Shown: positions 58,556 through 59,332 of the stretch, in pieces
Numbering within the stretch: the first letter of the stretch is position 1
How the letters are laid out: each line of letters opens with the position of its first letter
Virus record (IMG/VR): IMGVR_UViG_3300020431_000009
Span: 550-64,549 of that record
DNA: 64,000 bases
Reading direction: 5' to 3' (one strand)
Origin: a virus
Taxonomy: Duplodnaviria; Caudoviricetes
Notes under the pieces: generated by a model
The model's input: only the letters and a program-made list of their open reading frames with translations
The model's database searches: none
Told to the model about the DNA's origin: nothing
Made by a program: the position numbers and the translations under genes

Positions 58556-58581
58556 AAAAAAAAGAGGGTCTAAACCCTCTT
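58556..58581 (-). terminator. intrinsic terminator after the DUF4278-like gene
   Basis: AGAGGGT-TTAG-ACCCTCT plus T-run. Confidence 0.8.
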
Positions 58582-58595
58582 GGTAAGTAAGTTAA

Positions 58596-58763
58596 TCACT
58601 TAGTGTAAAGTTTACCACGATAGCAGAATGTACCATGGGTCTCTTTTGATTCTACACAACGAGTAGAATACTCAACACCACGATATGAGGTGTGAGAGAT
58701 CTGTGCGTCGTGAAGGGCAGATGCTTTGTTGATCTGCTTCTTGATCATGTTTAGTGTGTTCAT
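58596..58763 (-). CDS. DUF4278-like small protein (55 aa; domain shared with GS-inactivating factor IF17)
   Basis: Hand-read; two YRG motifs (SYRGVEY, CYRGKLY); AGGAG SD; downstream of a glnA-type riboswitch. Confidence 0.75.
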   Translation of the reverse strand: MNTLNMIKKQINKASALHDAQISHTSYRGVEYSTRCVESKETHGTFCYRGKLYTK

Positions 58764-58797
58764 TTGTCAGTCTCCTGAAGTTAGGGTTTTTAATCCC

Positions 58798-59025
58798 CGT
58801 TCCTTCAGTCGTGTGCGTCCCATGGGTAGCAATGAGGGGTTGATTCCTTCATGACCTCAATCAATTCCACCTTATATTCGGTAGGAATATTCTCATTTGT
58901 TCTCATCCGTAGCATAATGCTATCAGCTTGAGCACATGTGAGTGATGAATAGAATAATAGTTCTAACATGGGATGAACGGCTCCGTTCCGCGACTTACTT
59001 GCGTCCTCCTTGTGGAAGATGAACG
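58798..59025 (-). ncRNA. glutamine riboswitch (glnA motif) with long P3 insertion
   Basis: P1 CGTTC/GAACG, P2 TCTTCC-ACAA-GGAGGA, CGCAAGTA junction, P3 AGTCG/CGACT, GAAG; starts right after a promoter. Confidence 0.8.
58805..58969 (-). CDS. 54-aa ORF nested inside the riboswitch
   Basis: MLELLFYSSLTCAQADSIMLRMRTNENIPTEYKVELIEVMKESTPHCYPWDAHD; stop codon lies in P3'/GAAG. Confidence 0.65.
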   Translation of the reverse strand: MLELLFYSSLTCAQADSIMLRMRTNENIPTEYKVELIEVMKESTPHCYPWDAHD

Positions 59026-59032
59026 TGTGGTA

Positions 59033-59061
59033 ATTATACCATACTTTATTTATGGTAGCAA
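59033..59061 (-). promoter_or_regulatory. sigma70-type promoter of the riboswitch unit
   Basis: TTGCTA-17 nt-TATAAT; an ATAAATA late-type motif also lies in the spacer. Confidence 0.75.
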
Positions 59062-59062
59062 G

Positions 59063-59332
59063 TCAGTTTCCAGCTAAGTAGAACGAAGATTCTTTCGCCT
59101 TACATACCCTCTTGACTTCTGCGTCATAGACAGGAACTGTTCCAGCACCAGTGATTAAGTTCTTAGCAAATTCCCATGCCTCTCTGTAACGATAAAACTT
59201 ATACACATCGTTATAAGTTTTAGCAGATACAAGAATACCATCCTTCCTCCATGTCTTCATCGTATGCCAGACAGTAGGTTCAGATAGTTTACGATAGAAA
59301 ATACACCAATTGCCCTTTTGATTTGCACTCAT
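59063..59332 (-). CDS. hypothetical protein
   Basis: ORF track. Confidence 0.65.
   Translation of the reverse strand: MSANQKGNWCIFYRKLSEPTVWHTMKTWRKDGILVSAKTYNDVYKFYRYREAWEFAKNLITGAGTVPVYDAEVKRVCKAKESSFYLAGN

Follow-up and report, generated by a model that had tools for sequence, protein, structure and literature searches.

Glutamine riboswitches are already known in T4-like cyanophages (PMC9964418, PMC9602691). The RNA described here is the leader of a small transcription unit on the minus strand of a 64,000-nucleotide (nt) stretch of viral DNA, positions 550 to 64,549 of IMG/VR record IMGVR_UViG_3300020431_000009, which we call the window. The record is that of a T4-like cyanomyovirus whose nearest isolate is Synechococcus phage ACG-2014e, with 88.6% identity over the locus. 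The leader carries the elements of a glutamine riboswitch together with an open reading frame (ORF) of 54 codons, ORF54, and is followed by a second small gene, ORF55. An earlier note, made from the letters of this DNA alone, had proposed that the aptamer encloses the whole of ORF54 and controls a DUF4278-like gene.

The closest described system is the type-1 glutamine riboswitch (RF01739) in the gifB leader of Synechocystis, which raises synthesis of IF17, the product of gifB; it has been proposed that binding melts a helix that blocks the ribosome site (Klahn et al. 2018, PMC6212724). The window leader has in common with it the CGUUC and GAACG strands of P1, an A followed directly by the covarying hairpin P2, as type 1 demands, and the AAGUA...GAAG E-loop strands that flank helix P3. 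It likewise stands at the extreme 5' end of its mRNA, precedes a DUF4278-type gene and probably uses a masked ribosome site as its expression platform. Unlike the type-1 P3, that of the window is no hairpin with a short loop; it encloses 179 nt, which comprise a second core and the 54-codon gene. The type-1 CGG of strand J2/3 is replaced by CGC, and the C after P1 by a G, as in type 2, and the strand that masks the Shine-Dalgarno (SD) sequence is the P3/E-loop strand 5' of P1 rather than sequence 3' of P1. The glutamine-II RNA of marine picocyanobacteria (Downstream-peptide motif, RF01704), which occurs in the hosts of the phage, shares with the window the letters CGUUCA-hairpin-CGCA...GGAACGG and short DUF4278 genes, but the window leader has no supported version of its pseudoknot.

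Two homologous cores on one leader are also found in the tandem glutamine and glycine riboswitches (Sherlock et al. 2022, PMC9481103). The two cores of the window are nested instead of serial, sharing P3 and one expression platform. Homing-endonuclease ORFs sit in loops of group I and group II introns, where, as here, a complete ORF is accommodated by a hairpin loop at the periphery of a working RNA fold. The host RNA in the window differs from an intron in being a putative metabolite sensor in an mRNA leader, with the ORF starting in a stem and its stop codon overlapping the end of P3; in some relatives of the leader the stop lies within the stem itself.

The locus has been tabulated before. 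Table S7 of PMC9964418 lists Rfam glnA matches in phages ACG-2014f (92 nt), P-TIM68 (95 nt), S-CREM1 (99 nt), S-PM2 (101 nt) and S-ShM2 (235 nt). These are the same locus and double-core RNA, and the table is silent on the inner core and the nested gene, even though the 235-nt match in S-ShM2 (162519-162753) spans the nested gene SShM2_194, as in the window. A current Rfam scan no longer recovers this long form. A literature search that did not cover Ames and Breaker (2011) found no paper on the interlocked double core or on a gene inside an aptamer stem. The suggestion that the layout was undescribed therefore stands as regards any discussion of it, though not as regards its listing, without comment, in S-ShM2.

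Two probably interlocked cores sharing helix P3

The leader probably consists of two three-way junctions interlocked through a common helix, P3, belongs to the glnA (type 1) glutamine riboswitch lineage and presumably switches with its ligand. The outer core would run CGUUC(1)-A-P2-CGCAAGUA-P3...P3-GAAG-GAACG(2), which is the canonical type-1 order. The inner core would lie inside P3 in a circularly permuted form, GAACG(1)-loop-CGUUC(2)-A-P2'-CGCA, in which P1' is capped by a loop and P3 opens towards the outer core. The 179 nt within P3 read C-GGAACG-GAGC-CGUUC-A-UCCCAUG...CAUGGGA-CGCACA, that is, a GAACG/CGUUC hairpin followed by the A-stem-CGCA signature of the outer core, and the loop of P2', the inner hairpin, holds ORF54. 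The earlier note had seen a P3 loop of about 180 nt holding the ORF; the ORF does sit in this insert, although the insert is a second aptamer-like junction and not a plain loop.

On re-checking the sequence, every element that had been named was found in its place on the minus strand (Table 1), including the two copies each of CGTTC and GAACG, of which GAACG(1) lies at 58984-58988 and CGUUC(2) at 58975-58979. The set of elements in the window is far more than chance would give. The AGUA within J2/3 is one half of the E-loop. As AGUA follows unit 1 and GAAG follows unit 2, the nested fold is the only one that brings the two E-loop halves opposite each other. The leader does not hold two complete serial aptamers that could each fold alone, as a tandem doublet does, since it takes both units to make P3 and the E-loop.

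At the gathering cut-offs (35 bits for RF01739 and 33 bits for RF01704) an Rfam scan of the window returned tRNAs only and no glutamine riboswitch; the RNA is missed because 179 nt sit inside P3. The ORF-less leader of phage ACG-2014f scores 41.1 bits for RF01739 over the same outer CGUUC...GAACG pairing, with a P3 insert of 41 nt and a simple hairpin, UCCAG-GAAA-CUGGA, for the second stem. The proposed homology to glnA-type riboswitches is borne out by this relative, so that the Rfam match that had been looked for exists in ACG-2014f and not in the window itself, which reaches 22 bits. Across 141 aligned leaders, with or without an ORF, the core letters CGUUCA, CGCA, AGUA, GAAG and GAACGG are invariant save for the first letter of GAAG, which is G or A; AAGUA and AAG are likewise invariant, as is the CGCA.A of the inner junction. 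The window does not qualify as a glutamine-II RNA: its RF01704 score is 21.3 bits against the cut-off of 33, the 3' hairpin pairs are mismatched, and the pairing of CGUUC(1) with GAACG(1) is broken in 11 natural variants described below.

Pairs were counted on a single alignment, that of the 141 leaders (140 distinct), whose sequences are related, and the counts are not independent events, some of the changes being perhaps single ones. In this alignment the nested fold pairs 93.5% of cells, compared with 33-54% when the partners are slid, and 13 of its pairs are changed on both sides compared with 6.6 in shuffled alignments, none of 500 shuffles reaching 13. P3 is 100% paired, with changes from GC to AU at two positions and GU intermediates, and P1' is also 100% paired, with GC turned into CG in 11 sequences. 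At the fourth pair of P2' we find CG in 109 sequences, UA in 22, UG in 7 and AU and GC in one each, with 24 double changes. The P2 stem has many variants and covaries freely. The two helices said to pair across the ORF, P3 and the 7-bp stem P2', thus both covary, P3 being paired throughout and P2' over its four basal pairs. Covariation had been expected in P1 as well as in P3: P3 shows it, at the two compensatory positions, whereas P1 does not vary.

Several points weigh against the interlocked reading, besides the relatedness of the aligned sequences. The outer P1 strands CGUUC and GAACG are invariant in all 140 sequences and covariation therefore cannot test P1. The window's own matches in E-value mode (the 22 and 21.3 bits given above) are sub-threshold and short, and they close the 5' part on the proximal GAACG. 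Its letters CGC...GAACG-G are those of the type-2 consensus, and the J2/3 linchpin G of type 1, where CGG is expected, is absent. In type 1 this G forms a ligand-dependent pair with the C after P1 (PMC11477058); judging from the letters, a swapped C-G linchpin pair is possible in the window leader, in which the C of CGCAAGUA is presumed to be the partner of the G after GAACG. S-PM2 and P-TIM68 have a C-A mismatch in P3, and their unit 2, taken by itself as a complete aptamer, scores 33-35 bits, so that a side-by-side fold is possible in some lineages. Finally, under efficient translation of ORF54 a ribosome finishing at its stop codon would open the helix that masks the SD of ORF55 at any glutamine level and so blunt the switch.

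Such a side-by-side arrangement is the strongest competitor, and we regard it as unlikely for the family as a whole. Unit 1, CGUUC(1):GAACG(1), would be a glutamine-II-like aptamer controlling ORF54 and unit 2, CGUUC(2):GAACG(2), an aptamer controlling ORF55 with ORF54 in its hairpin loop, the GAACG(1):CGUUC(2) hairpin being merely a ligand-free alternative. Rfam aligns the 5' part of the window in this way, and unit 2 by itself attains 35.4 bits in P-TIM68, 33.3 bits in S-PM2 and, for RF01704, 32.1 bits in ACG-2014f. The word AGCCGACU is repeated in both units of S-PM2, as a tandem duplication would leave it, tandem glutamine riboswitches are common (157 doublets, PMC9481103), and a fold with CGUUC(1):GAACG(1) and the anti-SD helix lies within 2 kcal/mol of the minimum. 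Against this arrangement speak the 11 natural sequences in which GAACG(1) has become CAACG jointly with a change of CGUUC(2) to CGUUG, which keeps the mutual hairpin and disrupts the junction pair of each tandem P1 helix. The side-by-side arrangement also leaves aside the compensatory changes of P3, which pairs across the units, the division of the E-loop halves between the units and the presence of a single expression platform.

A gene in the loop of the inner hairpin

ORF54 is, on sequence evidence, a real protein-coding gene, as the earlier note had suspected. It matches phrog_504 at E 1.5e-29 and is present in 130 of the 141 two-unit leaders, the other 11 being ORF-less. The ATG stands 4 nt after CGUUCA(2) in 129 of the 130 ORF-bearing leaders, and the stop falls on the CGACU/GAAG boundary in 122 and 15 nt earlier in frame in five, three ORFs being truncated. 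The 127 nested ORFs encode 123 distinct proteins of a single family, whose members have a hydrophobic N-terminal stretch, keep two cysteines without exception and end in a WDA(N/H)D tail; their median ratio of nonsynonymous to synonymous substitution rates (dN/dS) is 0.32 and differences fall mostly on the third codon position (31593, 18317 and 38575 at positions one to three). In the window the ATG is part of the 5' strand of P2' and the stop UGA is made of the last base of CGACU and the GA of GAAG. GGAG, formed by the P1' loop and the last G of the stem, occurs in 120 of the 130 ORF-bearing leaders and in none of the 11 ORF-less ones, and is likely to be the SD of ORF54.

Relatives of the protein were found in phage and metagenome data only, none of them with a named function. 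No Pfam or NCBIfam family matched ORF54, and its confident AlphaFold model (predicted local distance difference test score 81.7), which has two main helices, a short N-terminal helix and a floppy tail, matched no fold in the Protein Data Bank at E <= 0.001. Attenuation by a leader peptide through glutamine codons was considered and set aside, as ORF54 contains a single glutamine and belongs to a conserved protein family. Many public gene calls make the members of this family 77-91 amino acids long, with a start further upstream inside the promoter and aptamer (58805-59050 in the window); these long calls are probably a gene-calling artefact that hides the RNA.

Two further explanations bear on the overlap of gene and RNA. 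The conservation could be a chance match, or a by-product of coding conservation and of recombination between conserved blocks, and GGGACGCA.ACGACUGA does also encode the WDA(N/H)D tail, so that part of its conservation may be at the protein level. We consider this highly improbable, as the identical letters are conserved in ORF-less leaders, CGUUCA(2) and the entire 5' half are non-coding, and the covariation exceeds that in all 500 shuffles and all slid controls. A free-standing phrog_504 homologue in ACG-2014f (177494-177670; L337:795-971), which lies in an ordinary operon about 34 kb from the ORF-less riboswitch, likewise lacks the tail along with any aptamer pieces, and the tail can therefore be read as imposed by the overlapping RNA core.

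Alternatively the sensor could be vestigial in the ORF-bearing phages, its pieces kept as ribosome sites and coupling hairpins after loss of the glutamine response. The nested start and stop codons do sit in stems, like those of translational-coupling hairpins, a ribosome terminating on ORF54 would by itself open the anti-SD helix, and the window scores below the Rfam cut-off. This too seems improbable, rather more so than the side-by-side arrangement, because the letters of the ligand core are invariant in the 130 ORF-bearing leaders even though 123 of 127 nested proteins are distinct, compensatory changes have preserved the P3 and P2' pairs over a distance of about 180 nt, and leaders with and without the ORF have a common core.

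The downstream gene

ORF55 appears from its sequence to be a DUF4278/IF17-like protein at the level of the family. The window's own protein matches PF14105 (DUF4278) at 19.6 bits (E 0.0012), below the Pfam cut-off of 25.3, while 26 of 28 diverse homologues from the locus match at E <= 0.01, the best at 1.3e-7; the proposed DUF4278-like identity is supported for the family. Y27 R28 G29 and Y48 R49 G50 are the sole invariant columns in the 28 homologues, and in our reading the two YRG motifs typify the DUF4278/IF17-like family. A search with the family profile found no relative of solved structure. Short picocyanobacterial homologues lack the C-terminal part of IF17 that binds glutamine synthetase (Klahn et al., PMC6212724).

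The regulated gene comes in two forms, a short one of 38-47 amino acids of the type MA(K/Q)VTYRG... and that of the window, which has a 22-residue N-terminal extension (MNTLN...ALHDAQI). Both retain the two YRG motifs (loci L093 of S-PM2, L094 of P-TIM68, L126, L149 and L174).

Expression platform and proposed working

The end of P3 together with GAAG forms the strand CUGAAG (58803-58808, minus strand), whose complementarity to CUUCAG at the SD of ORF55 had been pointed out from the window alone. In the alignment this anti-SD helix is 99.9% paired and it covaries, one pair being AU in 56 leaders, GC in 56 and GU in 28, and never A-C. The G-to-A change in the anti-SD strand at the same time preserves the stop of ORF54, as UGA becomes UAA. 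Without ligand, the anti-SD helix is predicted together with P2, P1' and P2' in the minimum-energy fold of the leader (-74.4 kcal/mol, z -3.4). The penalty for forcing P1 and P3 is only about 2 kcal/mol for the window leader, against 6.5 kcal/mol for the compact one, in an energy model that counts neither the E-loop nor the ligand.

By analogy with the gifB leader, the phage leader can be read as an ON switch for ORF55 with glutamine as the presumed ligand. Without glutamine, CUGAAG:CUUCAG beside the SD of ORF55 would tie up GAAG and the end of P3 and bracket GAACG(2), and ORF55 would be poorly translated. With glutamine, P1, the E-loop and P3 would form, removing CUGAAG from the anti-SD helix and freeing the SD. 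The same ligand-bound fold would bury the ribosome site of ORF54, with GGAG in the 4-nt loop of P1' and the AUG in P2', and glutamine should thus lower initiation on ORF54. Conversely, ribosomes would unwind P2' and P3 on their way through ORF54 and sit over GAAG-GAACG(2) on reaching the stop codon, thereby blocking sensing and transiently opening the anti-SD helix.

Since ORF54 starts in a stem and its stop overlaps the end of P3, translation and folding would exclude each other, and we infer that glutamine sensing and ORF54 translation compete on one RNA. We suggest, tentatively and with less conviction than the architecture itself, that the glutamine fold shuts off the nested gene and switches on the IF17-like gene while ribosomes keep the sensor unfolded; in relatives with two nested genes, one and the same ligand might repress two paralogues and induce a third gene.

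Spread of the layout and leaders with two nested genes

DNA of the locus matches 415 phage records and ORF55 is encoded in 371; it is further present in at least 587 IMG/VR stretches, and hundreds of cyanomyovirus records and contigs share the layout. Comparison of 215 loci gave 192 distinct leaders. A search of genome contigs for the inner hairpin word CGGAACGG-N2-6-CGTTCA gave, among the 120 matches listed, chance matches in unrelated bacteria; one of the 120 had a further motif, apparently by accident, and the scan is uninformative on the nested form in cellular genomes.

A supposed class of leaders without C1, 27 of the 192, was ruled out when a CGUUCA was located ahead of a second nested gene. 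This CGUUCA stands about 213 nt upstream of CGCAAGUA, right after a promoter, in 25 of the 27 (the other two loci are too short), and in 23 of the 25 loci the first hairpin, P2, appears to enclose a full-length ORF of 65-75 codons, mostly 65-68, after UCY(N)AUG. The AUG of this gp196-like ORF lies in the 5' strand of P2, and its stop is mostly found 2 nt ahead of CGCAAGUA, within the 3' strand. The P2 stems read UCUUAUG/CAUAAGA (stop UAA), UCUCAUG/CAUGAGA (UGA) or UCC(A)UAUG/CAUAGGA (UAG), so the type of stop codon covaries with the 5' strand. Examples of double-gene leaders among the 192 are L102:7821-8018, L107:2394-2591, L156:3118-3315 and L081:256-453 (S-TIM5). In such phages both hairpins appear to enclose genes.

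The two nested protein families align cysteine to cysteine (hhalign probability 92%, E 5e-7), and the P2-nested protein is likely, from this alignment, to be a paralogue of the ORF54 family. The alignment fits a duplication of the whole unit CGUUCA-stem[gene]-CGCA. We also observed a variant with three cores (L169:6502-6861), which consists of a plain-hairpin unit, a CGUUCA unit with a gp196-like gene in the stem loop and another plain-hairpin unit, with its own GGAACGG after each of the three.

Transcription unit and features of the leader

On the minus strand the unit runs from the promoter (59061-59033) through the leader, ORF54 and ORF55 to the terminator (58581-58562). With promoter, leader, both genes and terminator all present, it is a self-contained two-gene mini-operon. 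The TTGCTA-17-TATAAT promoter that had been proposed was recovered by a consensus scan, and the predicted transcription start lies 1-3 nt ahead of CGUUC(1); relatives have a homologous promoter, TTGACx-17-TATAAT.

The -10 box TATAAT is the centre of a palindrome, GTATGGTATAATTACCAC (59025-59044), with equivalent palindromes in relatives (AGGTCTATAATAGACCT). The scan also reads the palindrome as a terminator-like hairpin on the plus strand, and it could be an operator or a 5' hairpin of the RNA. No NtcA-type box (GTA-N8-TAC) was found within 120 nt upstream in the window (59026-59140), and 58 of 136 related leaders have such a box immediately ahead of the -35 box, 52-61 nt before CGUUC(1). The next gene upstream, an 89-amino-acid ORF at 59063-59332 (minus strand), belongs to phrog_6087 and stops 2 nt short of the riboswitch promoter's -35 box.

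Table 1. Features of the glutamine riboswitch leader and its transcription unit, with coordinates in the window
Feature	Position	Strand	Basis or remark
Sigma-70-type promoter TTGCTA-17-TATAAT with TG extension	59033..59061	-	consensus scan, 10/12 matches
C1, CGUUC, 5' strand of outer P1	59021..59025	-	invariant in 140 sequences; matches RF01739 positions 3-7
P2 hairpin UCUUCC-ACAA-GGAGGA	59004..59019	-	three basal pairs 99.3% paired, UA/AU/CG/GC exchanges
J2/3 CGCAAGUA (DNA CGCAAGTA)	58996..59003	-	invariant; Rfam type-1 consensus CGGAAGUA
P3 5' strand AGUCG	58991..58995	-	pairs with 58807-58811; 100% paired in 140 sequences
Inner hairpin P1', GAACG(1)-GAGC-CGUUC(2)	58975..58988	-	11 sequences with compensatory GC to CG change
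P2' 5' strand UCCCAUG, contains ORF54 start codon	58967..58973	-	four basal pairs paired in every sequence
ORF54, 54 amino acids, phrog_504, in P2' loop	58805..58969	-	small helical protein (predicted), two invariant cysteines
P2' 3' strand CAUGGGA, doubles as Pro-Trp-Asp codons of ORF54	58818..58824	-	covariation
Inner junction strand CGCACA, mirrors CGCA of J2/3	58812..58817	-	CGCAAA in most relatives
P3 3' strand CGACU, final U opens ORF54 stop UGA	58807..58811	-	covariation
GAAG, second E-loop half, also in 5' strand of anti-SD helix	58803..58806	-	
G2, GAACG, 3' strand of outer P1, and next invariant G	58797..58802	-	alignment
Anti-SD 3' strand CUUCAG (58775-58780), overlapping AGGAG SD of ORF55	58772..58780	-	99.9% paired
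ORF55, 55 amino acids, phrog_545, DUF4278/IF17-like with two YRG motifs	58596..58763	-	profile matches
Intrinsic terminator, closes the unit	58562..58581	-	consensus scan

Implications

Riboswitch aptamers are usually treated as compact non-coding domains, and here the helices close around a presumably translated gene, or around two in some relatives. Family scans undercount the riboswitches of phages, as they recover only the small number of ORF-less forms, compared with about 370 phage records that have the locus. As a presumed sensor that hundreds of ocean cyanophages have conserved, the leader would offer a natural system for competition between ribosome traffic and ligand-dependent RNA folding. 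The finding points to a two-cysteine microprotein family tied to an IF17-like gene, and to control by the phage of host nitrogen status through the IF17-like protein.

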